53,751 nt of DNA, taken from a virus (taxonomy: Duplodnaviria > Heunggongvirae > Uroviricota > Caudoviricetes). The stretch is taken from positions 1 to 53,751 of the IMG/VR virus record IMGVR_UViG_2698536392_000015; one strand, written 5' to 3'. This document shows, piece after piece, positions 1 through 24,547 of the stretch; position 1 is the stretch's first letter; each line of letters begins with the position of its first letter. Under the pieces are notes generated by a model. It ran no database searches. It saw only the letters and a list, made by a program, of their open reading frames with translations, and was not told the DNA's origin. The position numbers were made by a program, and so were the translations under genes.

Positions 1-1976
1 GGATCGAAAAATATTGCACCTATTGAGATAATCGGGGCATCAGGATTTTTTCCCATGGTTTCAAGGTCGATCATTAGATGGTCACACGTCCTGCTGGTGG
101 ATGTGATAATGCGATGACCGTTCACCGTAATTGAGGGATCTGCCGTCTCGCCAGTTTCACTATAGCTGGCGTGGTCCTGAGCGCTGCCAGCATTCTCCTT
201 GTGTGGATGTTCAGCGCCTTCCATTTTCTCCGAATCGTCTTCCTGAACTTCAACCAGGTTCTTGTCATCGAATGTTTCCTGGTATGTTGCGTCGCCCATC
301 ACCGCGCCACAATCAGGGCAGTTGCCGCCACTCCTCTGACCGCAGGCGGTGCAGATCTTTTCCGGTTCCTGTTGCACTACTGGTTCAGGTTGTTTCGTTT
401 CTGGCTCGTTTTGTTGCGTATTTGGGCTGTTCTGTTCCGCTTTCTGGTCGTTCTGTTCCGTTTCTGGCTGATTCTGGTACACAGAATCGCGGGTCTGGAT
501 CCCCTTAATCCATTTCGGATCATTCGGGTCGCTAATCCCTTCAACAAATTCTCCGCGAGAGGCAGCCAGTAATTTGTCTGCATCGACAGGATTTTGGGGC
601 GGAATGTTTTTCCGGGCTTCATGGAGTTCTGCCCGCAGTTTCTGATATTTCGCATCAACAGAATTTATCTGTGGCTGAGCATCCATCGACTGCGTGTCCT
701 GATTATGTTCAGTTGTATCCGGTTCCACTGCTTCAGTCGTTGCCTGTTCATCTGCCATTGCGCCAGATGGCTGCGGTTTTTCTTCATCATCCTGTTTTCC
801 TTCTTTTGTTACACGCTGCGGCATTGGAGCAGAGGAGCGACCGCAGGCAATATCCACGATTTCTGGATCAGGGTTGGCATGGTCGGTTTCGGTCAGTACT
901 TTGTTCAGATATTCGGTAACACGGTGGGGAGTAGCCTCGATACCAATTGGTGCTTCTTTCACGGACGCAACCACTATCGCGCGGGAATAATCCAGGTGAC
1001 CAGGCATGGCGATGAATTTGTCACGAAAAACAGAAAAGGGCGGCTTATTCTCTGAAACGATTTCTTCAATGCGTTTGGCGTGTGCCGGATGTGGATTGTA
1101 AATATCGATGTCCATTGAACGGGCCAGAACGCCAGCGGCAACGTCACGTTCCACTGACGCATCATCGTGGACAAAACCTTCACCGCGATCGGTAAGAATT
1201 CCTCCGCCAGCATTAGCGCCGGATGGCGTGCGGCTGATGCGTAAAACACGATTTCCTTTCATCCACTCTTTTGTCAGCAGACCTCGATCGGTATAGTCAG
1301 CGTCCAGGTATGCTTCGAAAAAAGCAGTCATTAACCCCAGACTGGAATTAACGGGATTAGGGAAAACTTTGTCTGTGTCGCGTACCAGTTTGTGAAGGTC
1401 GCGAATCTCCAGCGGGTCGAGCAGCTTTGTGTTGTGGGAAATAGCCAGGGCAGTAACAGCAGGCAGTTCTTCAGCTCGTGCGATATGTAATGCCTGAAGT
1501 TCTTCCCGTGAAACGTGCGTTACCGGTTTTTCGCTGCCATGTTGCGCAAGCCAGCGAATGGGCAGTTCCTGACCGGAAATCGGCAGGAGCATATTATCCT
1601 CAATCTCAGCCATGTCTTCGCCATTGACGTTGGTATTGTCAGTGCTGGCTGGTTTGTCCTGAACTGAGGGGGAAGGCGCTATAAATATCATTGTGATGCC
1701 ATCTTCTCCGCCTTTTTCATAGCGGTTGCAGAATTCAGTATCGAACACACCTTCAGGCGGCAGGTCATTAACAATGGGCAAATTCACGCGAACAGGTTTT
1801 TTGAAATCCTCTTCGTCAAATCCAGCATCGTCCATTGCGACAACACCCCGTGATATTGCAACCGATAATTTTTTTGCTGTGCGCCAGTAAAAACCGCCTT
1901 TAATCCCAAGGCGTTTTCTGACTTTGTCATTTTTGGCTTCGTAATACAGTGCAATTTCTTCTTTATCAGTGCTCAT
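1..1976 (-). CDS. Large prophage exonuclease-like protein, 3' end outside window; possible RecE (exonuclease VIII) homologue
   Basis: Manual translation from ATG at 1976 (RBS GAGG 7 nt upstream) stays open to position 1, so it is absent from the ORF track. Contains a CxxC-x7-CxxC zinc ribbon, a Q/E/P-rich low-complexity linker and a terminal MIDLETMG...[11 protein letters not shown] stretch resembling a DEDD exonuclease Exo I motif. Sits where recE lies in Rac-like prophages. Confidence 0.55.
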
Positions 1977-2068
1977 TGATAAACCTCATAACTATTTTAA
2001 GGTTGTACGAATCCCTGCTATTGCTGGCATGCTTAATCAACGGGTATGGCGTTAATACGGCTGGCGGG

Positions 2069-2257
2069 TTATCCAGCCGGTATTTCGTTATTCAGGTACA
2101 GCGATACTTTGTTTAACGGGAGACATTCACCGGAAATTTTTTGCTCGTCTCTTGCCTGATGGCAGGATTCTTTACTGGCATAAATTCCGGTAATCACATT
2201 CTGTGGCTCACCTGTTATAAGAAAAACCGTCATCATCAGTGCAAACGCTGAACTCAC
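2069..2257 (-). CDS. Small hypothetical protein (62 aa), hydrophobic N-terminus
   Basis: Track ORF; overlaps upstream gene by 4 nt, directly upstream of the exonuclease gene in the same leftward operon. Confidence 0.35.
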   Translation of the reverse strand: MSSAFALMMTVFLITGEPQNVITGIYASKESCHQARDEQKISGECLPLNKVSLYLNNEIPAG

Positions 2258-2442
2258 TGCTGCCCTCCGAAAATGCCAAGTTCAAGAAGGGCAATTCTGG
2301 AGAGTATGGAATTATCATTGAGAAGATAAGGCTCATATTTTCTCATCCTGATGGCGTCTTCAGTAAACTCCCGGTTACTGAGCAGAATACCAATATTAAA
2401 ACACCCTTCAGACGTATTAACGTTTGGTAGTGACGTTTCCAT
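2254..2442 (-). CDS. Small hypothetical protein (62 aa)
   Basis: Internal ATG at 2442 preceded by GAGGA; the track ORF 2254..2547 starts further upstream. Confidence 0.35.
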   Translation of the reverse strand: METSLPNVNTSEGCFNIGILLSNREFTEDAIRMRKYEPYLLNDNSILSRIALLELGIFGGQQ

Positions 2443-3005
2443 TATCGCGTCCTCAACAATGAATTTTGTGATGCGGTGCCTGGTGCCTCCAGGTGACGTT
2501 AACCAGTTAACAATTAACGCCGGATACAGAGAATCCACCCATAACACTGTTTTTGGTTTTAACTGTTCCGCGTGCGCTGAGCCGCATTCACCGCATCACA
2601 AAATTCACTTTAAAAAGGGCGGCAGAGCAGCCACGGAGTAAAACTGATACCGCCAAACGTCACCAGAAAATTGATAACAGAGGGCGTTGCAGCGGGGTTG
2701 TCACTTAAGCGTATGGTCAGCCTGACAACCCGGTGTCCTCAAGGGGAAGGAATAACCCCGCCATACTTACCGCCGCGCCATTTCGCGGATTGCCACAACC
2801 AGAAGCGCACGGTCGAAGAAATTTAACGACAAGACTTATATGCAAAGGGATCTCGCCGTGCGCTTTCGTGTTATGCCCTGACTTTTCAGGGAAATATCCT
2901 TTCAGTAAACTGTCAGTACCGGATTCTTATCCGTGTCCGGCGCACGACCACACGTGACAGCGTGTTGGTCTCCATTTTTAACCCAGAACCTCAATGGAGG
3001 ATAAA

Positions 3006-3215
3006 ATGCCAAACAAAAAAAGAAATCCGCTTATTGAAAAACAGATTGAATGCCTGGTAAATCAACTCAGGCAATCAGGGTTATTAAAAACTCATTCAGA
3101 GTTGAGGCTCACAGAATCAGCATTCGACGATAAATTAAATAATGTCCTTTATAATGGCATTATTGATTTTAATCGTTCTGTTGGTCGCCGCGGCCCTGCT
3201 GGTGTTTCCTTATAA
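3006..3215 (+). CDS. Small hypothetical protein (69 aa)
   Basis: ATG at 3006 with GGAGG 5 nt upstream; AT-rich; convergent with 3216..3854. Confidence 0.35.
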   Translation: MPNKKRNPLIEKQIECLVNQLRQSGLLKTHSELRLTESAFDDKLNNVLYNGIIDFNRSVGRRGPAGVSL

Positions 3216-3854
3216 TTACCAGTCAATCCAGAGTGGACCGTGTTCAGCGTAAATATAACTGTACACATCCAGATTATATTTGTGGTCTGTTAAGAACAGG
3301 CCGCAAATACATGCCGAAGCTTCCAGTGCAGCGGCTCTGTTACTGAATAACCATGTAGCAACATTCCAGCGTTTTTCTGCATCCCAGTCTTTCTCAAGGC
3401 CTGATACCATGAAGAAACCGTTAGTGTTGCCATCAAATAATTCTGTTTCCAAATTTTTAAGCAATGCCTGATGGACTCTTGCCAGGTATTCCGCCGGAAT
3501 TTCGCCACGAATTCTGATGAGATTGTCATAAACAAACATGTTCCCCGCATATGGCGATTTTTCTTTCTTGTTTTTTAAACCAGCATCATGAGCAAACTGA
3601 TCAATTTCTTCTTCCGTTGGTTTCGTATTGATGTTTTGCGCTGTCGTTTCTGCAATTTTATTTGCCACACTCTCTGAGTCGTGTTTATTTATAGACGCAC
3701 AGAAATACAATCCGGTAAACGCATCGCGCACATTACGAGCCATATTATCAGTGTCTTTTTTCGTTACCGATTCCAATTCAAGTTCGTTCAGACGATGACG
3801 AAGTGTGTGTGCTGCAATCTCCTGGATTGAAGGAGGTAAATCTTTAAATTCCAT
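3216..3854 (-). CDS. Hypothetical prophage protein (212 aa)
   Basis: Track ORF 3216..3866; start MEFKDLPP at 3854 with GAGG RBS; stop abuts the upstream gene. Confidence 0.5.
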   Translation of the reverse strand: MEFKDLPPSIQEIAAHTLRHRLNELELESVTKKDTDNMARNVRDAFTGLYFCASINKHDSESVANKIAETTAQNINTKPTEEEIDQFAHDAGLKNKKEKSPYAGNMFVYDNLIRIRGEIPAEYLARVHQALLKNLETELFDGNTNGFFMVSGLEKDWDAEKRWNVATWLFSNRAAALEASACICGLFLTDHKYNLDVYSYIYAEHGPLWIDW

Positions 3855-3865
3855 CGTCAACCTCA

Positions 3866-4105
3866 TCAGTCAGTGTTTCTGGCTAACCAGCGACGCGCGC
3901 CAGCTTCAGTTTTAAACGTTTTGCTTTTGGTATACGTCATCGCGGTGAACGTACCGTCCTGGTTGGGGAACACGCCACATACCAGAGATTCGTTGTTGCC
4001 AAGATTGAGCGTATCCATGTTGACCTCATTTCCCCTTAACGCCGGGGTAGCGGAACAAAAACCTGCTGCATAGTTATTAAAGTTGAACCCTGCCGTCATG
4101 TTCAT
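3866..4105 (-). CDS. Hypothetical prophage protein (79 aa)
   Basis: Track ORF in the leftward operon downstream of the toxin gene. Confidence 0.4.
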   Translation of the reverse strand: MNMTAGFNFNNYAAGFCSATPALRGNEVNMDTLNLGNNESLVCGVFPNQDGTFTAMTYTKSKTFKTEAGARRWLARNTD

Positions 4106-4309
4106 ACGCCTCGGGCTGGCTACTTAACCCCTGACCACTGCCGGGTAACTCGAAGTATTTCCCTGCGTTCTGTGGGGCGGGGTGGGTTGGTATTTTTAGT
4201 TTAATAAACATTAAACTTAAGTCAAGTAAAAACCAAACCGCGGGACATAACAAACACAACGCTTTTGATAAAGTCGTTGCGGTTGTTATGTTTCTATTGG
4301 TAGTGAAAG

Positions 4310-4588
4310 TTAGGGAAACTGGCGTCTTGCGTGGATCACGTTTACTACTTCAACGCTTGATGTTGTTACGCGGTATAGAATTATATAGTTAGGGTGGGCT
4401 ACAATCTCACGCAAGCCAGGTACTCTGTCGCTTGGTGGGTATAAATACGGATGTTCGGATAACGGCAGCACACAACCCCTTAATCGCTGCCATAAGCGTT
4501 CAGCCGCATCTATGTCGAAACGAGCAATATAACTAGTTATATCATCTAGGTCGGTATCTGCGCTTTCAAGCCATAACACGGGTAACAT
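4310..4588 (-). CDS. ParE/RelE-family type II toxin
   Basis: C-terminal ...NYIILYRVTTSSVEVVNVIHARR pattern typical of ParE/RelE toxins; ATG at 4588 lies 1 nt after the antitoxin stop. Confidence 0.7.
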   Translation of the reverse strand: MLPVLWLESADTDLDDITSYIARFDIDAAERLWQRLRGCVLPLSEHPYLYPPSDRVPGLREIVAHPNYIILYRVTTSSVEVVNVIHARRQFP

Positions 4589-4589
4589 T

Positions 4590-4781
4590 TTACTGCTTGC
4601 TCCGTTCCTTGCGCATCTTAGCAAAGCGTTCTGCCATTCTGCGCTCAACTTCGTCATGGGGAATTGCTGGGCGCGGATCTGCAAGGCTCGTTGCTACTTT
4701 CGCACGCAGCCATTCGTTGTAACTGTTTTCTTGTTCAATGGTTTCAAATTCAGAAACCATTGGTGAAAGGGCTCTATTCAT
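4590..4781 (-). CDS. Cognate antitoxin (ParD-like), 63 aa
   Basis: Start MNRALSP at 4781 preceded by GGAGGA; small, directly upstream of and coupled to the toxin. Confidence 0.6.
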   Translation of the reverse strand: MNRALSPMVSEFETIEQENSYNEWLRAKVATSLADPRPAIPHDEVERRMAERFAKMRKERSKQ

Positions 4782-4801
4782 GTTTCCTCCGGTTTTATAA
4801 C

Positions 4802-5173
4802 TCAGGCGCGGCGGCATTTTTGCGCCGCAATCCATCTCGCTATGAGATCTTCCATTGATTCTTTTTTCTGCTTTAACTCGCTGATTATCTGGCGTTGCTC
4901 ATCCTCAGGGAAGGCTGAAAAAATCTGCAATAATTCCAGTTGATTAGACGTTAACCCTGCATGTGGTGGAGAACCCCCCGGTTGTTCTGCGTATTCCGCA
5001 TCCAGATACCCTTCCGGCATCCCGTATGTTTGCTCTATTCTTCTGGCAGCCTTTTCTCCAAACGAGGCTCTCCCACTCATTAGTTGAGATAGGTAGCTCT
5101 TCTCTTTGGGTGGCAGAGTTTTATCTTTAAACCACTCCTTGAGACGTAAACGGCGAATTTCTTTTTTTTGCAT
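4802..5173 (-). CDS. Prophage immunity repressor, DicA-like HTH protein
   Basis: HTH region (SYLSQLMSGRASFGEKAARRIE) and C-terminal LELLQIFSAFPEDEQ resembling DicA as recalled; divergent from a Cro-like gene. Confidence 0.65.
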   Translation of the reverse strand: MQKKEIRRLRLKEWFKDKTLPPKEKSYLSQLMSGRASFGEKAARRIEQTYGMPEGYLDAEYAEQPGGSPPHAGLTSNQLELLQIFSAFPEDEQRQIISELKQKKESMEDLIARWIAAQKCRRA

Positions 5174-5270
5174 GTGGTAATTATCTTTAGTAATCACTAA
5201 ACAAGCAAATACTTGACTTAATGGTTTATCAAACACTAAACTCGCAAAAAAACACTAAACCGAGGAAGGT
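5174..5270. promoter_or_regulatory. Divergent promoter/operator region of the immunity switch
   Basis: Three CACTAAAC repeats (5193, 5232, 5250) and an inverted repeat TTTAGT-N4-ACTAAA (5179-5194) between divergent repressor and Cro-like genes. Confidence 0.5.
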
Positions 5271-5573
5271 ATGACATTAAAAGAGTTTATTAAATCATTA
5301 AGGGTTGGTGATGCTAAGAAATTCGCGGCCAGACTTGGTGTATCGCCATCTTACTTATCGCAAATGGCGTCTGGACGAACAGCTATATCTCCAACCCGCG
5401 CCCTTATGATCGAATCTGCGACGGAAGGCCAAGTAAGTAGGGCGGAGCTACGACCCCATGATTGGGAGCTTATTTGGCCTGAGTATGCGAGCGGCATTCG
5501 TTTGGGGCAAACACATGTAGTTCATGCTGAAGGTGATTGTAGTGCATGCTTATCTGATGGAGTTGATTCATGA
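5271..5573 (+). CDS. Cro/YdaS-like HTH regulator
   Basis: HTH motif (AARLGVSPSYLSQMASGR); divergent from repressor; RBS GAGGAAGG. Confidence 0.6.
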   Translation: MTLKEFIKSLRVGDAKKFAARLGVSPSYLSQMASGRTAISPTRALMIESATEGQVSRAELRPHDWELIWPEYASGIRLGQTHVVHAEGDCSACLSDGVDS

Positions 5574-5995
5574 AAATCAAGCATGAACACATCCGCATGG
5601 CGATGAATGTCTGGGCGCATCCGGACGGCGAAAAAGTACCGGCTGCGAAAATTACCAAAGCGTATTTCGAGCTGGGAATGACGTTCCCGGAACTGTACGA
5701 CGACAGCCATCCGGAAGCCCTGGCCCGTAATACCCAGAAAATTTTCCGCTGGGTGGAGAAGGACACCCCTGATGCTGTTGAAAAAATTCAGGCTCTGTTA
5801 CCGGCGATCGAAAAGGCGATGCCGCCTTTGCTGGTGGCCCGTATGCGCAGCCACAGTTCTGAATATTACCGTGAGATCGTCGAACGGAGGGATCGGCTGG
5901 TGAAGGATGTCGATGATTTTGTTGCGTCAGCGGTTGTTTTGTATGACCAGATGAATCGCGGCGGCCCGGCAGGGAATGCTGTGGTGATGCACTAA
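5570..5995 (+). CDS. YdaT-like prophage protein (141 aa)
   Basis: N-terminal MKIKHEH and size match my recollection of Rac YdaT; position after the Cro-like gene. Confidence 0.45.
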   Translation: MKIKHEHIRMAMNVWAHPDGEKVPAAKITKAYFELGMTFPELYDDSHPEALARNTQKIFRWVEKDTPDAVEKIQALLPAIEKAMPPLLVARMRSHSSEYYREIVERRDRLVKDVDDFVASAVVLYDQMNRGGPAGNAVVMH

Positions 5996-12114: not shown

Positions 12115-12430
12115 CGTGCGGGTATTACTTAGACCTGTTCTGGTGCCTGAGCTTGGGCTGGTGGTCCTTAAGCCGGGCCGTGAATCCATACAGATATTTC
12201 ATAATCCTCGAGTGCTGGTGGAACCGGAACCAAAAAGCATGCGTAATCTGCCATCCGGAGTCGTTCCTGCCGTTCGCCAGCCGCTGGCGGAAGACAAAAC
12301 ATTGCTGCCGTTTTTTAGTAACGAACGGGTGATTCGTGCTGCTGGCGGCGTTGGCGCATTGTCCGACTGGCTATTACGTCATGTTACATCCTGCCAGTGG
12401 CCTAATGGCGATTACCATCATGTAACCAAG
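12077..12430 (+). pseudogene. Coding-like ORF running into the Mu-like left end, probably a host prophage gene disrupted by the insertion
   Basis: ORF stays open up to the junction and stops just inside the Mu-like end; C-terminal region is protein-like. Confidence 0.35.
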
Positions 12431-12600
12431 TGAATCATTTGATACCGACAAGGGTTTTAGTGAAAGGAGGTGAAATCACCTGTAAGATGCTGAAATAAAA
12501 CAGGTGATGTATAGTTCGGACGGAAAACTCTTTTTGATACCGACTGCTCAACAAATAGTCAAAAGATCAAAAAACGGCGACACATTTGATACTGCTAATT
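12431..12600. repeat. Left-end transposase-binding repeats (attL, L1-L3 like)
   Basis: TTTGATACCGAC at 12438 and 12533, TTTGATACTGC at 12585; spacing resembles Mu L1/L2/L3. Confidence 0.6.
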
Positions 12601-12776
12601 TACCCTTAAAATCTTCTTCAAAACATCTTCAAACTGCCAAAATGCTCACATAATCGATCTAACTATAATCAGTATGATAATCATCATGAATTACTATTCA
12701 ATAGCGTGATTATCTTGGGATGAGTCATATGATCTCTATATGTATTTACAGCACCACCTCATGATAGCGATGGCGC

Positions 12777-13388
12777 TTAACCAACAACATTTTTCTTTAC
12801 TGTCACTGCCCCTGATTCCTGGGTGGCGTTATTGCTCGAGTTGTACTTCTCAATAACGCGCAAAATCTCTTTGTCTGTTTCTTCACTTCCCGCCATTCCT
12901 ATCTTTATTGCATTTTTTAGTACGGGACGTAATGGCAAGGCATCAATGATGCTTTCTACCGCATCCTGGCTGATTGTAGATGTATTCATTGCTGCCAGCC
13001 TGACAAGGTTGTTAGTACCTTCTCGCCTGATGAATGTAAGGATTAATTGCTTCTCTTGGGGGCTTAGAGAGCTAAGCGCCTGATCAATACCCGAACCTGA
13101 ATCGCAATTATTTTCGATTTTTCCGCATTCATCTTCGTTCTTGCCTGTGGCCAACCATTCGAGTGAACAATTACAGGCTTTAGCTATTAAGGCCAGTTTA
13201 TCCAAAGGAGGGAAGTTTTTCCCCTTCCTGTAATTTCTTACTGTGGCTTCAGATAGTCCACAAAGGGTCGCCAGTTCGACGTTTGTCATGTCTCCCATAG
13301 CCATAGCTAAGCGTTCTGAAAATCGGTTTATTCCTTCCATATCAATAAACCGTTCCGCACTGGATACGGTTTTTTCTGCCTTATCCAT
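12777..13388 (-). CDS. Mu-like prophage repressor (XRE-type HTH)
   Basis: HTH (MTNVELATLCGLSEATVRNYRKGK); leftward gene at the left end, divergent from ner. Confidence 0.7.
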   Translation of the reverse strand: MDKAEKTVSSAERFIDMEGINRFSERLAMAMGDMTNVELATLCGLSEATVRNYRKGKNFPPLDKLALIAKACNCSLEWLATGKNEDECGKIENNCDSGSGIDQALSSLSPQEKQLILTFIRREGTNNLVRLAAMNTSTISQDAVESIIDALPLRPVLKNAIKIGMAGSEETDKEILRVIEKYNSSNNATQESGAVTVKKNVVG

Positions 13389-13544
13389 ATAACCCCCTAT
13401 AAAACAAAGAAATTATCGATATCGCATTTAATTTCGATGCGCTCGCAAAAAACCGTTGATATCGAATTATTTTGCGATTATGATTTACCTAAATCGATAA
13501 CCGGTTTTGATTATCGGTTCAGGTAAACATGAGAGGATCACACA
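13389..13544. promoter_or_regulatory. Operator/early promoter region between repressor and ner
   Basis: Multiple CGATA/TATCG-centred repeats (ATCGATATCG, TTGATATCGAAT, AATCGATAACC, GATTATCGG). Confidence 0.5.
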
Positions 13545-13811
13545 ATGAGGGTATCCAGACAAGCATCGAATAATTTGTTTGTTCGAGAGGGGTGTGACTG
13601 GTCTGCTAAAGCGGTATATGCAGCCCTTGAAAACAAAGGCACAGACCTCCCTGAACTGGAAAGGGAGTTAGGATTAAAAAGCGGATCAATGCGCAATGTG
13701 TTTTACCGCCAGTGCCGTAAATACGAAGCCGCCATCGCCGAAAAAATAGGGGTTGAACCTGCTGTAATCTGGCCCAGCAGATACCAGGTGGACGCCAGAG
13801 AAGTGGCTTGA
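13545..13811 (+). CDS. ner: Ner-like DNA-binding protein
   Basis: C-terminal ...AVIWPSRYQ motif as in Mu Ner; position between repressor and transposase. Confidence 0.7.
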   Translation: MRVSRQASNNLFVREGCDWSAKAVYAALENKGTDLPELERELGLKSGSMRNVFYRQCRKYEAAIAEKIGVEPAVIWPSRYQVDAREVA

Positions 13812-13821
13812 TGGGGGATGT

Positions 13822-15912
13822 ATGTGGGTAACAGCAAAAGAATGTGTTGGTCTTCCTGATTTACCAATGATGGAACATAACATTCGCCATCGACTCACAA
13901 AAGCAGCTGCGGGAAATGCAGCCATGTTACGCAAACGTAAGGGGACAAAAGCAATCGAATTTAATATCGATTGTTTGCCTTCTGGCGCGCAACAAGTATT
14001 GCGTGAACGTTATGCCCTTCAACTGATGACGCAAAAAGCCGATGAATCACCGGCTCCGGTGGTGACAAAGGCCAGACGCTCGCCTGCCGTGGTTGATGCG
14101 GTGGAGGCATATCGCGGATCACCACAACTGATGGTTGAACGCCTTAATGCCCTGACTGAAAACCAGCGCCAGGTGGCTGATGCACGAATCGCGATCGTCA
14201 GCGAAGTGATGAAAGTCGCGCAACAACCCGGTTTCAGCTGTGCGAAAGCTATCCGGTTTATCGTTGACAACCTGGCACGTTCGCAGCTGGACGAGCGCAT
14301 TGTGGCAATGGTTGAGACGGCGAACGCCAAAAAGGGAAACAGCCGCGCGTTGAGTGAAATCACGCTGAAACGCTGGATTGCAGCCTTTAACAAGGCGCAG
14401 AACGCCGCCGAACGCCTGCTTTTACTGGCACCGGGTAAGCGCCAGGAAATAAAAGCCGAAGATATTAACTGGCTGCCCGAATTTCTGGCGCAGTATCGCC
14501 AGTCAAACGGCCGACCAATGACCGAGGCTTACGAGGATTTTGTCGCTGAATGGCAGCACCGGCACGCTGATGAGCCTTATATGCTCGATATCATGCCGTC
14601 TTATGACACCATTCGCCGCGCAATGAAGAAACTGCCGGAAGTGGTGAAACAAAAAGGCCGGGTGACCGGCAGTGAATACCGCCAGCTTGAGGGATTCACG
14701 CGCCGCGACTGGTCAAAAATGCCGGTGAATTATGTCTGGATTGGTGACGGTCACGGCATGAAGCTGAAATGCGCACACCCGGTTCACGGTCGGCCATTTG
14801 CACCGGAAGTGACCTTTGTTATCGACGGTGGCACGCGCTTTGTGGTGGGCTGGAGCCTTGACCTGGCTGAAAATGTTTTCGCCGTAGCCGGTGCCATACA
14901 GCACGGCATTCGCCATCACGGCAAACCGTTTCTGTATTACTCGGATAACGGCTCCGGGGAAACCGCCGACATCCTGGATAAGGAGGTTGTGGGGATACTG
15001 CCGCGACTGGGGATTAATCACCCGACCGGGATTGCCGGTAATCCGCAGGGACGAGGCATTATCGAACGGCTTAACCGCACATTACCGATGCGCATAGCCC
15101 GTAAATACCGCACCTATTTCGGGAAAGGTGCAGATCGCGAGACGTTACGCAAAACCAACCGCGATTTACGCTCGGCATTTACTGCCCTGCAACAGGGCAA
15201 ACGGCTGAACGCCCGGCAGCAGTCAGCGATGCGTGATTTACCGTCCTGGTCTGAACTGATTGATGCCATTCGTGACGGTGTTGAGTGGTACAACAACCGG
15301 CCGCACGATGAATTACCCATGAAGCCGAACGGGAAACATTACAGCCCGGCGGAGTTCAGAAAAAAACGCCTGGCGGAAGAGGACACTGAAATTGAATGGC
15401 TGTCCGATGTTGAGCTGCGGGATATGTTCCGGCCGATGGTGGAACGCCCTGTAAGACGCTGTGAAATACGCTGGCTGAATAATATTTACTACGCGCCCGA
15501 GCTGCGTGACGAGCATGGCCGCAAGGTGCTTATCAGCTATGACATTCATGATGCCGAACGAATTACCGTTCGTCGCCCGGATGGCAGCGTGATTTGCGAG
15601 GCGGTATGGGACGGCAATAAACGCGAAGCCTTCCCGGTCAGCGCGGAATACTACAAACAGCAGCAGCGCCTTAAAGGTATGCGTAAACGCGCAGAGGAAA
15701 AAATCCGTGATGCCGAGGATGAGGTTGTCAACGTGCTGGAGCACAAGCCGCAGGAGCCATGGCTGGAAAACATATACCGCCCTGTGGGTAATACGGTGAC
15801 CGTTCAGCGACCAGCCGTTGATGATGAACCTGATGAAGAATACGAGCGTAATTTCCAGCGGGGATTGCAGTTGCTGGAAGCGAAATTAAAAGAAAATGAC
15901 CCGCTGGCCTGA
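13822..15912 (+). CDS. Mu-type DDE transposase
   Basis: 696 aa; N-terminal WVTAKECVGLPDLP resembles the MuA N-terminus; position and size match MuA. Confidence 0.9.
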   Translation: MWVTAKECVGLPDLPMMEHNIRHRLTKAAAGNAAMLRKRKGTKAIEFNIDCLPSGAQQVLRERYALQLMTQKADESPAPVVTKARRSPAVVDAVEAYRGSPQLMVERLNALTENQRQVADARIAIVSEVMKVAQQPGFSCAKAIRFIVDNLARSQLDERIVAMVETANAKKGNSRALSEITLKRWIAAFNKAQNAAERLLLLAPGKRQEIKAEDINWLPEFLAQYRQSNGRPMTEAYEDFVAEWQHRHADEPYMLDIMPSYDTIRRAMKKLPEVVKQKGRVTGSEYRQLEGFTRRDWSKMPVNYVWIGDGHGMKLKCAHPVHGRPFAPEVTFVIDGGTRFVVGWSLDLAENVFAVAGAIQHGIRHHGKPFLYYSDNGSGETADILDKEVVGILPRLGINHPTGIAGNPQGRGIIERLNRTLPMRIARKYRTYFGKGADRETLRKTNRDLRSAFTALQQGKRLNARQQSAMRDLPSWSELIDAIRDGVEWYNNRPHDELPMKPNGKHYSPAEFRKKRLAEEDTEIEWLSDVELRDMFRPMVERPVRRCEIRWLNNIYYAPELRDEHGRKVLISYDIHDAERITVRRPDGSVICEAVWDGNKREAFPVSAEYYKQQQRLKGMRKRAEEKIRDAEDEVVNVLEHKPQEPWLENIYRPVGNTVTVQRPAVDDEPDEEYERNFQRGLQLLEAKLKENDPLA

Positions 15913-15983
15913 AATAAAAAAATAACCCGAGCGGCGACTCAGGTTATTTGATTAAACAAGGTATCAAATGAGAGGTTAATAAT

Positions 15984-16916
15984 ATGACTGATATTAACGA
16001 TGTAATCAAGACCATTGATGAACTTATTGATGGCGGCGTACTGACGCAGTATGCCATCGCCAGAGAGGCGGGAATTTCCGACGGCACATTATCGGCTTTC
16101 CGTAAGGGAAAATATAAAGGCGATAACGCTGCTGTGGCTGCTTCCCTGTGTTCCTGGTATGAGAACTGGAATAAACAAAGCGCACTGCCGGAACCGCCGC
16201 AGTTTGTGGAAACGCAGACAGTCCAGGAGCTGCGCGCGCTGTTTCAGGCGGTTCGCCTGATGGGCTGTATTAACGTTATTGTGGGCGTGCCGGGGGTAGG
16301 TAAAACGGCCACCGCCCGTAATTACTGCCAGGAGCAACCAAACACCTGGATGATCACCCTGTCTCCCGCGCATTCCAGCGTCACGGAGTGTCTGCTGGAG
16401 CTGGCCGATGCGCTGGGGATTGATTACACCCGCGCGAACAAGGGGGCATTATCCCGCGCCATCCGCCGTCGCCTGATGGGAACGCGTGGACTGGTGATTG
16501 TGGATGAGGCGGATCATCTTGGTATTGACGGTCTGGAGCAACTCCGGGCAATTCAGGACGCCACGGGGATCGGGATGGTGCTTATTGGTAACCCGCGCGG
16601 ATTGTTTAAAGGTGGACGCCGCGCCTTTGATGATTTATCGCGCCTGTTCAGCCGTCTTGCCCGTACAAAACAACTTCGCAAGGCCAAAAAGGCGGATGTG
16701 CTGGCCATTGCCAGGGCGTGGGGTATCAGTGGTGAGGCCGAGCTGGCTGTCATGCAGGCTATCGCTGAAAAACCGGGAGCATTACGTGTTTTGACGCATA
16801 CGCTTAACCAGGCGTGGATCACCGCCAGCGGTGAAGGTGCGGCGCTGACAGAAAAACATATTAATGCGGCTTTTAAAGAGGTTTACACCAACCCTGAATT
16901 ACTCTCGCAGGTGTGA
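15984..16916 (+). CDS. MuB-like AAA+ ATPase transposition protein
   Basis: Walker A GVPGVGKT, Walker B LVIVDEAD; follows the transposase gene. Confidence 0.9.
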   Translation: MTDINDVIKTIDELIDGGVLTQYAIAREAGISDGTLSAFRKGKYKGDNAAVAASLCSWYENWNKQSALPEPPQFVETQTVQELRALFQAVRLMGCINVIVGVPGVGKTATARNYCQEQPNTWMITLSPAHSSVTECLLELADALGIDYTRANKGALSRAIRRRLMGTRGLVIVDEADHLGIDGLEQLRAIQDATGIGMVLIGNPRGLFKGGRRAFDDLSRLFSRLARTKQLRKAKKADVLAIARAWGISGEAELAVMQAIAEKPGALRVLTHTLNQAWITASGEGAALTEKHINAAFKEVYTNPELLSQV

Positions 16917-17140
16917 TTATGGCGGTATTTAATATTCCTGATATTTACGGGCGCTTTTACCTGGTTAATTTCGATAACGTCAAAGCAGTCTCCATGTCTG
17001 ACAGTGAAGAATGTGGCGATTTACTCTTTGAATTTAATGATCGCACCCGAATGGCAATATCGGCAGGGCTTGATCGTGAAGGTGCGAAAGAAGCTTACAG
17101 CAATATTTGTCGCTTTATCGGTGCAAGACGGGTTAGTTAA
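16913..17140 (+). CDS. Hypothetical early protein (75 aa), in the position of Mu kil
   Basis: Track ORF overlapping MuB stop; positional inference only. Confidence 0.4.
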   Translation: MIMAVFNIPDIYGRFYLVNFDNVKAVSMSDSEECGDLLFEFNDRTRMAISAGLDREGAKEAYSNICRFIGARRVS

Positions 17141-17152
17141 ACGAGGTGTTAT

Positions 17153-17575
17153 ATGAATACGCAGATACAGCAGGAAATTAATGCTCTCCATCACTTTCAC
17201 AGGCAGAACGACAATGCCGGAGTGGTTTGTGATTATATCTGGACGTCGATAAACAGAAGCACTGGCGTATGTTTCCTGTGTCTGGACGTATATCAGTTGT
17301 ATGCCGACCTGCAACCTGAATCCATCCGGCGCCGTTTTAATGGTGAGTGCTTTAATGAGGATGTCTGGGAAGGCCTGCGCTTTGGTTTTCTGATTATGGA
17401 TGATTATCGCCAGGGGTGGCGACATAGTTACTCCATTCTTCGGGCAATCATGCGTGGCGAAACCCGAAAAATGCCGGGGATGGGTAAGGTTAATCGCGGC
17501 CTCCTGTTAGAGATAGCAGCAGCGCACATGAATCCATTACTGATACAACCGGAGTTTACTTATGAATTTGTTTGA
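17153..17575 (+). CDS. Hypothetical early-region protein (140 aa)
   Basis: Track ORF. Confidence 0.4.
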   Translation: MNTQIQQEINALHHFHRQNDNAGVVCDYIWTSINRSTGVCFLCLDVYQLYADLQPESIRRRFNGECFNEDVWEGLRFGFLIMDDYRQGWRHSYSILRAIMRGETRKMPGMGKVNRGLLLEIAAAHMNPLLIQPEFTYEFV

Positions 17576-17792
17576 TTCACTGAATAACGCCCGTCGCCTG
17601 ACCGAGCTTGCCGGTGCGGTACTGGAACGCAGTAAGCGCTATCCGCAACGTTTTGCACTGAAAACCACGCCGCCGGTAGGCGAGGTTCAGGGGAGTGGTG
17701 AAGAAATTGAAATCACCGTTAAGACCAACGGCCTGCGCCGCCGTGTGAAGGCCACCCGCATAAGCGGATGCACGGTTTACTGGGAAGTATGA
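17562..17792 (+). CDS. Hypothetical early-region protein (76 aa)
   Basis: Track ORF overlapping the previous stop. Confidence 0.35.
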   Translation: MNLFDSLNNARRLTELAGAVLERSKRYPQRFALKTTPPVGEVQGSGEEIEITVKTNGLRRRVKATRISGCTVYWEV

Positions 17793-17866
17793 AGTTACTT
17801 CATGGTTCGGCTCTGTCATCAGGCCAGACGCCGGGTCAGTTATCCGAACAAAACGAGGACCAGAGG

Positions 17867-18139
17867 ATGAGTAAAGTCGTACGCATTATTTTCGAATACA
17901 AGGAAGATGTTATCTGCAAAAACTCTGATGGCAGCACGCACAGAGGGGTAAGTCTGGATATACGTTCAACCGGAATAAAGAAGAAAGATAATGGACCCGC
18001 CATGATTTTTGGGGTGGTTATGCTGGCAGAAAGCAGAAACTTCGCAGAGCTTGTGGCAATGAAAGCCAGTGCATTCATGAAAGACAGGGGTATGGCTTCC
18101 GGGGTTATTAACGGTAATGAATTTAATCAGCAGGGGTAA
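17867..18139 (+). CDS. Hypothetical small protein (90 aa)
   Basis: ATG 17867 with GAGGA RBS; N-terminus MSKVVRIIFEY resembles the next gene. Confidence 0.4.
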   Translation: MSKVVRIIFEYKEDVICKNSDGSTHRGVSLDIRSTGIKKKDNGPAMIFGVVMLAESRNFAELVAMKASAFMKDRGMASGVINGNEFNQQG

Positions 18140-18143
18140 TTCC

Positions 18144-18437
18144 ATGAGCAAAGTACGCGTTATTTTTGAATTTGAGCATGTTTCGCATGACGAAAAGCTG
18201 GCAGGCAATGACTGTGTTGAAGTGCATGAAAAGATTGGAGTGAATGTGAAAACAGAACGTGATACGGAGAACAGCCCGACGTCACTCTGTGATGTTTATG
18301 CAAGTATTCTCCAGTATCACAGTCCTGTAATTATTCAGTTTCTCTCAGCGGAATTTCAGGCATCTGTACAGGCTTTTGGGGCGGATGCCATCATTAAACG
18401 CCACCGTGTGCATAAAGCATCAGGCACACTGCAATAA
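18144..18437 (+). CDS. Hypothetical small protein (97 aa), possible paralogue of the previous gene
   Basis: ATG 18144; N-terminus MSKVRVIFEFE. Confidence 0.4.
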   Translation: MSKVRVIFEFEHVSHDEKLAGNDCVEVHEKIGVNVKTERDTENSPTSLCDVYASILQYHSPVIIQFLSAEFQASVQAFGADAIIKRHRVHKASGTLQ

Positions 18438-18447
18438 GGAAAACAAA

Positions 18448-18978
18448 ATGGTTAAACGTGTTACAAAATTAAAGGCCGCAGCCGAGGCTGCACCGCAGAC
18501 CCGCGAAGAAGTCAGCCGCGATATCCGCACCCTGGGCGATATTCAGCGAGAGGCGCTGCGCCTGGAAACGGCAATGAATGATGAAGTGGCAGAAATCACC
18601 GCCCGTTATACGCCGCAGATTGAAAACCTTAAAAAAGAAATCAAAGTGCTTTTTAAAGGGATTCATGACTGGTGTAAAACCAACCGCAATGAGCTGACGA
18701 ACGGCGGCGAAACCAAAACTGCCAATCTGACCACCGGAACGGTGTCATGGCGGCTGGGAAATCCATCATGCAGCGTCAGTCGTGATGTGGAAGGTGTGAT
18801 TGAAATGCTGCGTCGTATGGGGCTTGAGCGCTTCATCCGCACGAAAGAGGAAGTGAATAAGCAAGCTGTCCTGGCAGAGCCGGATGCGGTGAAAGGGATT
18901 GCTGGTATTAAGGTGAATAAAGGCGCTGAAAGTTTTCATGTCGAGCCTTTTGAACAGGACGCCGGACTGAATAAATAA
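18448..18978 (+). CDS. gam: Host-nuclease inhibitor Gam (Mu-type)
   Basis: Strong resemblance to Mu Gam as recalled (GDIQREALRLETAMND, ELTNGGETKTANLTTGTVSWR, RFIRTKEEVNK); RBS AAGGAA. Confidence 0.85.
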   Translation: MVKRVTKLKAAAEAAPQTREEVSRDIRTLGDIQREALRLETAMNDEVAEITARYTPQIENLKKEIKVLFKGIHDWCKTNRNELTNGGETKTANLTTGTVSWRLGNPSCSVSRDVEGVIEMLRRMGLERFIRTKEEVNKQAVLAEPDAVKGIAGIKVNKGAESFHVEPFEQDAGLNK

Positions 18979-19050
18979 CACCGCATTAAATCTTTAAATA
19001 TCACATCGTTTTAATTATGGCGCTTGCGTCAGGGGACTGCTCGCGCCTGA

Positions 19051-19641
19051 ATGAGGCATATCATGAGTATAAAATATCGTTATTTTAAAATGAATGAGCG
19101 CGATTCCCGTCATTATCACAGGGAATGGCTTGATTGCGCTGGCAGGGAGCGCCAGAAATTGATTGATGATTTTCTCAGTAATCAGAATGCCAGAGGGTAT
19201 TGTTGTTCCTGGTATTGTGGGGATTTTTTTGTCAAATCAATACTGGTGCATGAGGATGTTGATGTCGGAAGAAATAAGCGGGTGCTGTCTGATAAATTTG
19301 ATGAAGATGGCCGCGTTTTATTTTCAGTTAAGCCCGACCGCAGATTCAGAGAGGGAAAAAAACTGAACAAAGCACTGAATATCTTAAACGAGAAGTTAAA
19401 ACAGCTTCCGTCATTCAGTACCTGGATGGTTAATAAACTGGACTGCTATTTTGAGGTTTTTGGTGTCAGCAACGGCCGCACAGTTATGGCGTGCTCTTCT
19501 GCCGGGTTCTATGGCGACAAAGGGGCTGTTGTGGTTCGTATTCCTGTCGGTGAATCAGATAATGCCTTTTCACCTGAAAAGCTGCATCCGTCATTGATGG
19601 CAATCAAGCATTCCGAATTCATCGCAATAACGGAGGAATAA
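19051..19641 (+). CDS. Hypothetical early-region protein (196 aa), AT-rich
   Basis: Track ORF. Confidence 0.4.
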   Translation: MRHIMSIKYRYFKMNERDSRHYHREWLDCAGRERQKLIDDFLSNQNARGYCCSWYCGDFFVKSILVHEDVDVGRNKRVLSDKFDEDGRVLFSVKPDRRFREGKKLNKALNILNEKLKQLPSFSTWMVNKLDCYFEVFGVSNGRTVMACSSAGFYGDKGAVVVRIPVGESDNAFSPEKLHPSLMAIKHSEFIAITEE

Positions 19642-19644
19642 TTC

Positions 19645-20178
19645 ATGATTGATGCAAAAGTGCTTGAAGGGGTTAAAAACTGGCTGCGTTTTTCTGGCCG
19701 TCTGACCAGTCGTTCTCTGGCTGAAAAAATGAATATGCCGCTATCCTCGATGGTTTATTTTCTGCGTGATGCGGTTGATGCCGGGGTGCTGACGGAATGT
19801 AACGGTTTTTATGATATTCCGCGTCCCCGCCCGGTGCAGCCGGTTCGTCGCAAATGCAGCCAGGAAGGTGCGGCTGATGATGTTCAGTGGTGCAGCTTCA
19901 GAAAATCCCTGCCGTGGATTGAAGGGCATGATATTCCGTCGATGGCGTGGGAATTTGCTCAGGGCGTACTGACCTGTGAAACCGTTTATGTGGTGGCTGA
20001 AGTTGATGAGCAGGCCATGAAAGAAGGCGTGCCCCAGTTTGTGATGGCGTATATCGACATTCGCCTGGGTGTCATTATCTGCGGTTTAAGCGGCTGGAAT
20101 ATCACCGAACATGTTCTGCGTTACCTGATTGTTGACCGGACGGCTGCGCCTGCCGGGATATCTGCGGAGGTGGCGTAA
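19645..20178 (+). CDS. Hypothetical early-region protein (177 aa)
   Basis: Track ORF. Confidence 0.45.
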   Translation: MIDAKVLEGVKNWLRFSGRLTSRSLAEKMNMPLSSMVYFLRDAVDAGVLTECNGFYDIPRPRPVQPVRRKCSQEGAADDVQWCSFRKSLPWIEGHDIPSMAWEFAQGVLTCETVYVVAEVDEQAMKEGVPQFVMAYIDIRLGVIICGLSGWNITEHVLRYLIVDRTAAPAGISAEVA

Positions 20179-20693
20179 TGTTCTTTAAAACATCAAACCC
20201 TTCCGCGCTGGCTGCGTGGCAAAAATACCAGCAGGACTACAAGAAAGTTAAGGATGAGGCAAAACGTCTTGAGGCCGTGCTGAATGTTGATTGTCGGTCG
20301 GTATTTGTATCCGGTATCAATGGTTTTTATTTTAAAGGACTGCGTTTTACGGATAACAAATATCCTTTTCATCGCGACTTATGGCGAAAACCGACCGCGT
20401 CGAATGGCTGGAGCTGCACGCCGCGCACATCGTGTATTCCCAAAGCCCTGTGCGCTGCCTCTGACGAACTTAACAGTCTGTGGCGTGAATATTCGCCCGT
20501 CACGTATGCCAGAACCGATGCACTGTTGTTCTGGCTGGGCATTGACTTCTCAGCAATATTGCATGGTCCCGTGAAGTGGTTCTGCGTTGATGATGTGATT
20601 TACCTTCAGTGTGGCGTACAACCTGAAAAACAGAGAATGACCGAAATTCTGTCTGATGAGTTTTATGCTGCTGAAAAGCGAGTCAGGGGGTGA
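20178..20693 (+). CDS. Hypothetical early-region protein (171 aa)
   Basis: Track ORF, start overlaps previous stop. Confidence 0.45.
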   Translation: MFFKTSNPSALAAWQKYQQDYKKVKDEAKRLEAVLNVDCRSVFVSGINGFYFKGLRFTDNKYPFHRDLWRKPTASNGWSCTPRTSCIPKALCAASDELNSLWREYSPVTYARTDALLFWLGIDFSAILHGPVKWFCVDDVIYLQCGVQPEKQRMTEILSDEFYAAEKRVRG

Positions 20694-20696
20694 TGT

Positions 20697-21248
20697 ATGA
20701 TGATTTTACAACCCATGGGGCGAAAAGGTCGTGCACCCGCTCATGTCCGTCCGTGGACACCTGAAGAAGATGCGCTGCTGATTGCGCTTTATCCATCCAC
20801 CCCGGTTAAGGATATTGCTGTCAGGGTAAAAAGAAGTTTCTGGGGTGTACATAACCGGATTGTTTTATTACGCGGTACTTACCCGGAGTTGCTCAAATGC
20901 AAACGCCTCAGATTTAAACCTGATGAAGATAAATTTATCCGAAAAAATGCCAGGACGATGACCGGTAAGCAAATAGGAGAATATCTGGGGCGAGACCGGG
21001 ACTCTGTCCACAATCGGGCGCGATATATTGGCGTAAGCATGAAAAAATACGGAGAGTTGCTGCCCTTCACCCGCATACCTGACGATGATGTTCGTCTTAT
21101 TCGTGAATTACGGGATGCTGAATCACCACGGCGTCTTACCTTTAGGGAAATCGGCGAGAAATTTGAATTATCCGAGGGCACGGTGAGTTTTATTTATCAC
21201 CGTCGTCGGACTGCCGAAGATGTTGTATTACGGGAGTTAATGTCATGA
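20697..21248 (+). CDS. Hypothetical protein with HTH-like repeats (183 aa)
   Basis: Two HTH-like segments (WTPEEDALLIALY; GKQIGEYLGRDRDSVHNRARYIG). Confidence 0.45.
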   Translation: MMILQPMGRKGRAPAHVRPWTPEEDALLIALYPSTPVKDIAVRVKRSFWGVHNRIVLLRGTYPELLKCKRLRFKPDEDKFIRKNARTMTGKQIGEYLGRDRDSVHNRARYIGVSMKKYGELLPFTRIPDDDVRLIRELRDAESPRRLTFREIGEKFELSEGTVSFIYHRRRTAEDVVLRELMS

Positions 21249-21577
21249 TAACGACATTATTTGTTGAATCAGATGAACCCCTTGTGTGTGCCGCCGGAAT
21301 GCCGGTCTGTGGCGGAACGCTGACCGGTGTTTATTTCGGGGATTTGCGCGGTTATCCCTGGCATTCACTGAATGATGCTTTCCCGCCTGATATGGAGGCT
21401 GTCGTGCTGATTGTTCAGTATGGTCACAGGCAGGAACTGCGCATCGGCCATATGGGGTATGAAGGCTTTTTTATTGATGAAGAAACTGGATCCTGCCTTG
21501 AAGATGAGGACGGACAGGTGACGCACTGGTGCCATATTTCAGCTTTACCGGAATTACAGGAGACGCCCAATGGATGA
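21245..21577 (+). CDS. Hypothetical protein (110 aa)
   Basis: Track ORF. Confidence 0.4.
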   Translation: MITTLFVESDEPLVCAAGMPVCGGTLTGVYFGDLRGYPWHSLNDAFPPDMEAVVLIVQYGHRQELRIGHMGYEGFFIDEETGSCLEDEDGQVTHWCHISALPELQETPNG

Positions 21578-21710
21578 TCAAATAGTTGAATGTCCCACCT
21601 GTGGAAATGAAGCCCCGGAGTATCTGAAAGAGTGCCCACATTGTGGTGAGGTAAAATGTAATCACTGCGATATGGGCGACGACACTGCATGTATGAATTG
21701 TGAGGATTAA
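21570..21710 (+). CDS. Small zinc-ribbon protein (46 aa), below the ORF-track cutoff
   Basis: Manual translation MDDQIVECPTCGNEAPEYLKECPHCGEVKCNHCDMGDDTACMNCED with four CxxC motifs. Confidence 0.35.
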   Translation: MDDQIVECPTCGNEAPEYLKECPHCGEVKCNHCDMGDDTACMNCED

Positions 21711-22002
21711 TAATATGGAAAAAGAAATCAAATTTGCGCCTAAAGATATCGACGAAGAACTGGCTAAAATCGGCATGCTTGAGCGTATGCGGGACATTAT
21801 CGAATATGCGATAAAAGAAAATCTTGCAGCCAGAGAAGCCCTTTTGATAATGGAGCGGGAGATTAACCTGATTAAGGATGCTGTATCTCTGGATAATAAA
21901 ATAGCCCGCGAGGAATACGTTCGCCGCAGGCTCGGTGTTGATGGTTCAGCAATTCTTACATCTGAACATTATGCAAAAATCTTTAATCTTTTTTCGCGGT
22001 AA
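21700..22002 (+). CDS. Hypothetical protein (about 95-100 aa)
   Basis: Track ORF; likely start MEKEIKF at 21715. Confidence 0.35.
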   Translation: MRINNMEKEIKFAPKDIDEELAKIGMLERMRDIIEYAIKENLAAREALLIMEREINLIKDAVSLDNKIAREEYVRRRLGVDGSAILTSEHYAKIFNLFSR

Positions 22003-22222
22003 TGCCCATGCAGGCCCGGAGATTGTCGAAATGCCAGTTTGTATTAATATATGAGCCATCCTGGTGTCCCTCTGCGCTTTGGGGTGCGGCACTTTTTTGA
22101 GCAATATTGATAATATGTGTTGCCTCCTCACGGGAAATAACCCCCTTATCGAACAGGGTTACCATAAGATTTCCAGCCATTGTGAATGCGGCAACATCAA
22201 GGGCATTTTTTATATCTGACAT
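21983..22222 (-). CDS. Hypothetical protein (79 aa) on the opposite strand within the Mu-like early region
   Basis: ATG preceded by AAGGAAAAA; convergent with the upstream plus-strand gene. Confidence 0.4.
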   Translation of the reverse strand: MSDIKNALDVAAFTMAGNLMVTLFDKGVISREEATHIINIAQKSAAPQSAEGHQDGSYINTNWHFDNLRACMGITAKKD

Positions 22223-22242
22223 AGATTTTTCCTTTTATGTTA

Positions 22243-22272
22243 ATTGACATGGCGGTGCGGTAACACCGCCCA
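22243..22272 (+). terminator. Hairpin plus T-run upstream of the GemA-like gene
   Basis: GGCGGTGCGGTAACACCGCC followed by CATTTTTTAT. Confidence 0.4.
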
Positions 22273-22292
22273 TTTTTTATGGAGCCACGATA

Positions 22293-22805
22293 ATGAATCG
22301 CGCTTCCCTGATTACCTTAATACATGTCGCAAAACGCGATCTACAGCTTGACCGGGAGACCTATATATCCGCGCTGCTGGCAGCCACCGGCAAAACCAGC
22401 TGCCGGGATATGTCACCGGATGAGTTATCCCGCGTGCTGGATGTTTTCAAAAAACGCGGTTTTAAAGTGCGCCAGAAGCCGGTTAACCGGGCCTTAAAAC
22501 CGGGTACGGTGACCGCCAAAATTCGTGCCATCTGGAAGGTAATGCACCGGCAGGGCTTTATCTCTGATGGTGCGGAAACCGCCCTTAACCGCTGGGTGAA
22601 ATCGCAGACGGCCGCGCAGAACGGCGGCGAAGGTGTGGCAAACTGGCAGTGGCTGGAGCAACACCCCGCCCTGGCCTCAGATGTGCTGGAGCGTCTCAAG
22701 CGATGGCACCGCCGCAAAATGCTGGCCGCGATGGGAATGCCCGAACGCACGCTGATGGGGTATGACGCCGTTTGCAGGCAGTATGAAAAATCACTTCCCC
22801 GTTAA
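22293..22805 (+). CDS. GemA-like regulatory protein
   Basis: N-terminal pattern (LITLIHVAKRDLQLDRETYISALL...TGKTSCRDMSPDEL) resembling Mu gp16/GemA as recalled. Confidence 0.6.
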   Translation: MNRASLITLIHVAKRDLQLDRETYISALLAATGKTSCRDMSPDELSRVLDVFKKRGFKVRQKPVNRALKPGTVTAKIRAIWKVMHRQGFISDGAETALNRWVKSQTAAQNGGEGVANWQWLEQHPALASDVLERLKRWHRRKMLAAMGMPERTLMGYDAVCRQYEKSLPR

Positions 22806-22874
22806 CCCCAAATCCCGCCACAACGCGGGATTTTTATTTTAAACTTACCGGGAACGCGAGAACCGGAGGCTGAT

Positions 22875-23300
22875 ATGGCAGAAACTCAGATGAGCATGTT
22901 TGGTGGTGACAGTGAGCAACAGCACGCCCTTATCGACCGCCTTGATGACATCCCTGATGATGTTCTCAAAAAGAACTGGCCGCGGACCCTGTCTGAACTG
23001 GTTGAAGTCACCGGCGCAGAACTTCAGCGTCAGGGGATTGAGCCGGTACTGGCCGGTAAACTGGCACGCAAGGTGGCTGCGGCTCAGGCAGCCTATATGG
23101 GCGGACGGGGTTATTACCTGCCGGTCGGGGAATCTCTCTTTGCCGAGCTGCGAAACAATGAGATATTTTCGCGCTGGGACCGGGGCGAGAAAATTGAATC
23201 CCTTCGCCGCCATTACCGGATGTCAGAAACCCAGATTTATACCGTCATACGCGAACAGCGCCGTCTGCATCTGGCAAGAACGCAACCGCCACTTTTCTGA
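22875..23300 (+). CDS. Mor/C-family transcriptional activator
   Basis: C-terminal HTH ...LRRHYRMSETQIYTVIREQRR and YYLPVGESLF pattern typical of the Mor/C family; GGAGG RBS. Confidence 0.7.
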   Translation: MAETQMSMFGGDSEQQHALIDRLDDIPDDVLKKNWPRTLSELVEVTGAELQRQGIEPVLAGKLARKVAAAQAAYMGGRGYYLPVGESLFAELRNNEIFSRWDRGEKIESLRRHYRMSETQIYTVIREQRRLHLARTQPPLF

Positions 23301-24537: not shown

Positions 24538-24547
24538 GGAAAAAGGT

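Follow-up and report, generated by a model that had tools for sequence, protein, structure and literature searches.

The system closest to the locus studied here is paaR2-paaA2-parE2 of the cryptic prophage CP-933P from Escherichia coli O157:H7 EDL933, which is identical to Sp12 of the Sakai strain. Its name dates from 2010; the structures and the regulation were elucidated from 2012 to 2023. [quoted passage not shown] An O157:H7 paralogue, paaR1-paaA1-parE1 of CP-933M, has the same three-component architecture and protein families, and the same account of Hallez 2010 (PMC4803016) states that the antitoxins do not cross-neutralize.

The regulation of the locus was described by Jurenas 2021 (PMC8630535). 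The CI analogue is PaaR2, which has no S24 autocleavage domain and is produced from a leaderless mRNA; the Cro analogue is YdaS. The footprints of PaaR2 and YdaS fall on overlapping operators spanning PRM and PR, and PL is repressed by both proteins as well. The immunity region is bistable. YdaT switches on a PRE-like promoter; this promoter, PRE933P, yields an alternative paaR2-paaA2-parE2 transcript (PMC8630535, PMC9986795). As for the TA proteins, PaaA2 is degraded by ClpAP and ClpXP, overexpression of ParE2 induces SOS, and the toxin co-localizes with the nucleoid, although its target "remains to be uncovered" (PMC8630535). Neither of the two transcriptional states showed ParE2 activity, and SOS was absent at steady state (PMC8630535). 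In the literature, stabilization of the immunity region by the pair has the status of a proposal: Jurenas 2021 suggest that the region becomes addictive through the pair, which would also restrain rearrangements within it (PMC8630535). According to Prolic-Kalinsek 2023, paaA2-parE2 "replace rexA and rexB" and PaaR2 replaces CI (PMC9986795).

We analyzed a stretch of 53,751 nucleotides, positions 1 to 53,751 of the IMG/VR virus record IMGVR_UViG_2698536392_000015, which is called the window hereafter. Its minus strand carries three closely packed ORFs within 4310..5173, in the paaR-paaA-parE order of a three-component system: paaR2 (4802..5173; CI-analogous repressor, 123 aa), paaA2 (4590..4781; antitoxin, 63 aa and a TAA stop), and parE2 (4310..4588; ParE-family toxin, 92 aa and a stop). 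The preliminary description had placed a toxin-antitoxin pair at 4310-4781, with a spacing of 1 nt, directly downstream of a repressor gene on the same strand. Both ORFs are present there on the minus strand, nucleotide 4589 alone lies between the paaA2 TAA and the parE2 ATG, and paaR2, on the same strand, ends 20 nt ahead of the paaA2 start. The antitoxin size of 63 aa was also right; the toxin, given as 93 aa, has 92 residues and reaches 93 codons only with the stop. A GGAGG Shine-Dalgarno sequence is located 5 nt 5' of the paaA2 ATG, and within the operon such a sequence precedes paaA2 only. For parE2 and paaA2 there are also longer in-frame versions, one of 124 aa beginning with TTG and one of 81 aa beginning with ATG; both are upstream extensions, and the crystallized ParE2 and PaaA2 begin at the ATGs used here.

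The two small proteins were compared with structure and profile databases. Residues 2-63 of PaaA2 are identical to the PDB entries 3ZBE_A/5CW7, "PaaA2" (E 5.5e-37), and the protein scored 70.7 bits (1e-19) against Pfam PF21217, with a cut-off of 27. This was the only Pfam match at E<=0.01, and no DNA-binding domain was found. ParE2 matches 5CW7_B/5CZE, "Plasmid stabilization protein ParE" (E 7e-60), at 100% identity across its 92 aa and is also identical to the crystallized 5CZF; its further, weaker PDB matches, 3KXE (C. crescentus ParE1, 3.6e-5), 6X0A, and 5CEG, are all ParE proteins. Against Pfam ParE_toxin PF05016 it scored 60.9 bits (cut-off 23; E 1.9e-16) over profile positions 1-89 of 89. 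The pair had been assigned from the letters to a ParE-type toxin and its cognate antitoxin, and the family profiles and the identity to the crystallized PaaA2-ParE2 complex bear this out; the expected ParE/RelE fold has been solved experimentally for the exact toxin sequence (5CW7_B, 5CZE, 5CZF). Judged by PDB identity and by Pfam scores above the gathering cut-offs, the ORF pair is a real feature, far beyond chance.

On sequence identity, the pair is paaA2-parE2 of the O157:H7 prophage CP-933P, located behind the repressor gene paaR2. ParE2, PaaA2, and PaaR2 are the same proteins as those of CP-933P, and exact identity makes them the "2" versions rather than those of CP-933M; no second copy or paralogue (paaR1-paaA1-parE1) was found within the window by tblastn. 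The identification is firm because the sequences are identical, and nothing contradicts it. We thus assign a probability of about 0.95 to the reading that the locus is a three-component type II TA operon, paaR2-paaA2-parE2, inside a CP-933P-type lambdoid immunity region. The earlier reading was largely right but not new, and a named and characterized system went unrecognized in it. The locus is an ordinary, already explained feature of little importance as a discovery, and its value lies in annotation: RefSeq names the genes "RelB family antitoxin", "RelE/ParE family toxin", and "hypothetical protein", and parE2 of phage Evi is unannotated.

Classical parDE systems (RK2, Caulobacter crescentus ParDE1 3KXE, and Vibrio cholerae ParDE2) share with the window the ParE fold, PF05016, and an antitoxin that wraps the toxin. 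However, PaaA2 lacks their ribbon-helix-helix DNA-binding domain. In the classical systems, transcription is controlled by conditional cooperativity, whereas in the window it is controlled by a separate repressor and the phage switch; gyrase poisoning is also not demonstrated for ParE2. The omega-epsilon-zeta system of pSM19035 is another three-component type II TA system in which, as here, a separate regulator gene precedes an antitoxin without a DNA-binding domain. Its toxin and regulator folds are unrelated and it is plasmid-borne, whereas the regulator in the window doubles as the prophage immunity repressor.

PDB 7NKV/8C3K, titled "Phage repressor protein CI", contains the N-terminal domain of PaaR2; residues 1-66 are identical to it (E 5e-41), and the remainder of that chain is a tag. 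The N-terminus MQKKE agrees with the N-terminal sequencing reported in PMC8630535, and the published transcription start coincides with the ATG of paaR2, here at 5173 (PMC8630535). The repressor had been called DicA-like. This term holds for its place in the cI/dicA slot and for its C-terminal 50-70 residues or so, which resemble DicA, but not for its score, which is far below the DicA family cut-off. BLASTP against K-12 DicA gave 29% identity over 70 C-terminal residues only (E 4e-7), and the NCBIfam DicA model NF007257 gave 28.1 bits over residues 72-119 only, with a cut-off of 101. Full DicA family membership was rejected on this partial match, and the 123-aa PaaR2 had no Pfam match. By these comparisons, PaaR2 is a positional DicA analogue with a related C-terminal (oligomerization) segment, outside the DicA family.

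All the hallmarks of a CP-933P-type immunity region were found, namely the 97-bp operator region, ydaS-ydaT, the YdaT operator, and PL hexamers equal to those of PR; gene order and spacing are also as in CP-933P. The OR region (5174..5270) has the published length of 97 bp, and the EMSA primers FL1 and FL2 match its intergenic ends exactly at 5270..5251 and 5174..5195 (PMC8630535). Two promoters diverge within it, PRM933P to the left and PR933P to the right, and it also contains inverted repeats of the GTTTAGTAA type, for example IR1 at 5185..5202 and IR3 at 5225..5242; matches to the GTTTAGTAA half-site were found. The promoter scan returned a rightward PR-like promoter, TTGACT-18-TAAACT, at 5213..5242, and a minus-strand PL933P-like promoter, TTGACT-16-TAAACT, at 4198..4225, which lies downstream of parE2 among OL-type repeats. 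The PL and PR hexamers are identical in the window, and the -35 and -10 elements of PL933P are described as identical to those of PR933P (PMC8630535). Conservation of the PL-like sequence extends to O157 TR01 and phage Evi. We infer PRM to be TTGCTT (5208..5203) and GATAAT (5185..5180), separated by 17 nt and ending 6 nt before the paaR2 ATG, a position that fits the published leaderless start.

To the right of OR, ydaS (5271..5573, plus strand; Cro analogue, 100 aa) matched Pfam YdaS_toxin (3.3e-12) and HTH_3 (6e-7), with zero nucleotide differences from O157:H7 TR01. It is followed by ydaT (5570..5995, plus strand; CII analogue, 141 aa), which matched the crystallized CP-933P YdaT, PDB 8BT1_A (E 2.7e-91), and Pfam YdaT_toxin, and then by an O-like replication gene. 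The YdaT operator motif TTGATTN6AATCAA, published in PMC9986795, has a sole match in the window, with 0 mismatches, at 5563..5580. This site, OM (TTGATTCATGAAAATCAA), lies at the ydaS/ydaT junction and adjoins PRE933P.

At the other end of the operon, a stable minus-strand hairpin was detected at 4245..4291, 19 nt past the parE2 stop (-25.6 kcal/mol, z = -4.0; equalled by 0 of 200 shuffles). It is not a canonical intrinsic terminator, since its U-rich run begins about 8 nt past the stem, and the consensus terminator scan missed it and returned no minus-strand terminator after parE2. The hairpin is a candidate end of the immunity transcript and may terminate it. Co-transcription of the pair with the repressor, proposed in the preliminary description, agrees with the same-strand geometry observed here and with the transcript published for the identical operon (PMC8630535; Hallez 2010 as recounted in PMC4803016).

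Based on the published work, the following mechanism is proposed. PaaR2 would be translated from the leaderless PRM933P mRNA, and the same transcript would run on into paaA2 and parE2. YdaS, encoded divergently, would compete with PaaR2 for the overlapping operators in the 97-bp region, and also at PL, giving a bistable switch, while YdaT bound to TTGATTN6AATCAA would activate PRE and open a second transcription route for the operon. PaaA2, which is intrinsically disordered and without a DNA-binding domain, would wrap ParE2 and neutralize the toxin. If the cassette were lost, degradation of PaaA2 by ClpAP and ClpXP would leave free ParE2, which would harm DNA metabolism and trigger SOS; a topoisomerase is the suspected target. 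The net outcome would be addiction: cells losing or swapping the immunity region would be killed, and the cassette would be stabilized. Sequence identity, gene order, and regulatory sites in this scheme come from the present analysis, and operon structure, toxicity, proteolysis, and post-segregational killing come from the literature on the identical proteins. The published mechanism would be expected to hold in the present host and prophage backbone. The preliminary description had suggested that the pair could stabilize the prophage, a role with a published counterpart: the identical locus matches ccdAB in its ability to stabilize an unstable mini-F plasmid, and does so by post-segregational killing (PMC8630535).

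The distribution of the locus was surveyed with a 1101-bp core (4200..5300), which was carried by 633 of 5426 complete E. coli genomes, with an identity of at least 99% in 565 of the 633. Many of these genomes are labelled O157:H7, and the copies are almost all chromosomal. The core is 99.8% identical to O157:H7 chromosomes, CP-933P included, and the best matches differ at two positions, 4234 and 5230. Both are T-to-C changes (plus strand) relative to O157:H7 TR01 and to phage Evi, which carries the common base at each position. Among about 580 complete cassette-carrying E. coli genomes, no perfect short-query match to the window base at 4234 or 5230 was found. Position 5230 is non-coding and belongs to the left arm of IR3, the 18-bp inverted repeat that overlaps PR; on the minus strand, the change there reads GTTTAGTGTTTAATAAAC to ..TTTGATAAAC. 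Position 4234, also non-coding, lies in the GTTTAG motif of OL, 9 nt upstream of the PL -35. The substitutions could alter regulation; their placement in operators is not statistically remarkable, as most non-coding sequence here is operator.

The immunity cassette (4029..~5990) sits in a mosaic prophage backbone unlike that of CP-933P. Among complete E. coli genomes, none contained 80% or more of the window's first 12 kb. Homology to CP-933P-type prophages extends from 4029 to 6978 only, with three differences up to 5697 and a mosaic O gene to the right. The left flank (1185..4184) matches, at 94% identity, another EDL933 prophage, one with an S24-type repressor, and the two homologies overlap at 4029..4184. 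Homology to phage Evi (LR597642) stops at 4029 as well, the same left edge, which lies just upstream of a ydfA-like start at 4018. Judged from these alignments, the cassette has a recurrent recombination boundary at 4029 and behaves as an exchangeable lambdoid module, which is expected of lambdoid phages and fits, but does not prove, addiction. As a near-identical cassette occurs both in this different backbone and in an isolated coliphage, the locus is a modest data point for the published idea of addictive immunity. Compared with CP-933P, the window thus differs in the substitutions at 4234 and 5230, in its O gene, in a Mu-like insertion, and in the backbone left of 4029, where the ydfA-like gene and a gene for a 216-aa protein are arranged as in another EDL933 prophage.

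Three other readings of the locus were weighed. The pair could be a RelBE-type mRNA-interferase module, as the RefSeq labels imply; the antitoxin passes NCBIfam NF050103, "RelB family antitoxin" (84 bits; cut-off 50), and the ParE and RelE folds are shared. However, the toxin, well above the Pfam ParE cut-off, reached only 21.4 bits with TIGR02385 RelE_StbE, whose cut-off is 27.9, and RelBE membership was rejected on this score. Its relatives in the PDB all being ParE proteins, and SOS induction with nucleoid co-localization pointing to a DNA-directed rather than a translation-directed activity (PMC8630535), this reading is extremely improbable. The conflict between the NCBIfam name and the Pfam name, PaaA2, is a naming difference. 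An inert remnant, hitch-hiking in a decaying, mosaic, and interrupted prophage, would agree with the mosaic host prophage and its Mu-like insertion, and also with the toxin activity undetectable at steady state (PMC8630535). Against this, the three intact ORFs are 100% identical to experimentally active proteins, their roughly 850 nt of coding sequence contain no substitution, compared with a divergence of at least 6% in the flanks, and the same cassette is found in the isolated coliphage Evi. We consider inertness very unlikely.

Many TA systems, some of prophages among them, defend against phage. The main role of the pair might be Rex-like superinfection exclusion or abortive infection: an incoming phage would block host transcription or provoke degradation of PaaA2, and the ParE2 set free would cause cell death ahead of phage maturation. 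Several observations are in line with such a role: the pair occupies the rexA-rexB slot of lambda and is co-transcribed with the repressor (PMC9986795), PaaA2 is labile (PMC8630535), and phage defence by TA systems is a theme of PMC10440598. The likeness to lambda cI-rexA-rexB is one of arrangement: in both, accessory genes directly follow a leaderless repressor gene, lie between the repressor gene and PL/OL, and are expressed in the lysogen from PRM and PRE. The proteins are unrelated: RexAB excludes phages by depolarizing the membrane, PaaA2-ParE2 is an addiction module gated by proteolysis, and PaaR2, in contrast to CI, has no S24 autocleavage domain. Moreover, the demonstrated phenotype is addiction (PMC8630535), and PADLOC-DB 2.0 gave no match at E<=0.01 for ParE2, PaaA2, PaaR2, or two downstream proteins. 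No phage-defence assay of PaaA2 is reported in the examined literature that mentions it, and the abortive-infection role raised in the preliminary description found no support. Exclusion as the main role is therefore unlikely, although less so than the two readings above. We consider similarly doubtful a combined scheme in which the pair in the rexAB slot is also a phage-exclusion module, the changes at 4234 (OL) and 5230 (PR IR3) shift the PaaR2/YdaS switch and with it the timing of the TA genes, and the addictive cassette spreads by recombination, with the same 4029 edge in three backbones. The three-component TA operon in a CP-933P-type immunity region remains the preferred reading.

Additional observations were made in phage Evi and around the cassette. 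Coliphage Evi was isolated from infant faeces (PMC10910852). In Escherichia phage Evi (LR597642.1), positions 3586..3864 encode a ParE2 100% identical to that of the window that is unannotated in GenBank, and the record names PaaA2 only as "hypothetical protein" and PaaR2 only as "putative regulator". In the window, a DUF1391 ORF of 79 aa (3866..4105, minus strand) aligns from Met30 with K-12 YdfA (51 aa, 88% identity), so the ydfA-like gene is probably 3866..4018 rather than the 79-aa ORF; as in the Qin prophage, no other gene lies between it and the upstream PL. The 216-aa protein (3216..3866, minus strand) occurs with its exact sequence in EDL933 (AE005174.2), in the same place after the DUF1391 gene, and had no match in Pfam, NCBIfam, or PADLOC.

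Farther along the window, about 7.6 kb downstream, a transposable Mu-like prophage roughly 39.5 kb long (12421..51907) is inserted in a DUF968 gene of the lambdoid prophage, with junctions at ~12420/12421 and ~51907/51908. An exact 35-nt pattern spanning the insertion junction had no match in the genome or viral contig sets (genome_contigs, viral_contigs). It encodes a c-repressor-like HTH protein (12777..13388, minus strand), a MuA-like transposase (13822..15912), a MuB-like ATPase (15984..16916), and a C5 cytosine methylase (50696..51748), along with Mu-type head and contractile-tail genes. The uninterrupted target is present in O157:H7 TR01, ATCA flanks both junctions, and both ends of the Mu-like prophage carry TTTGATACCGA repeats.
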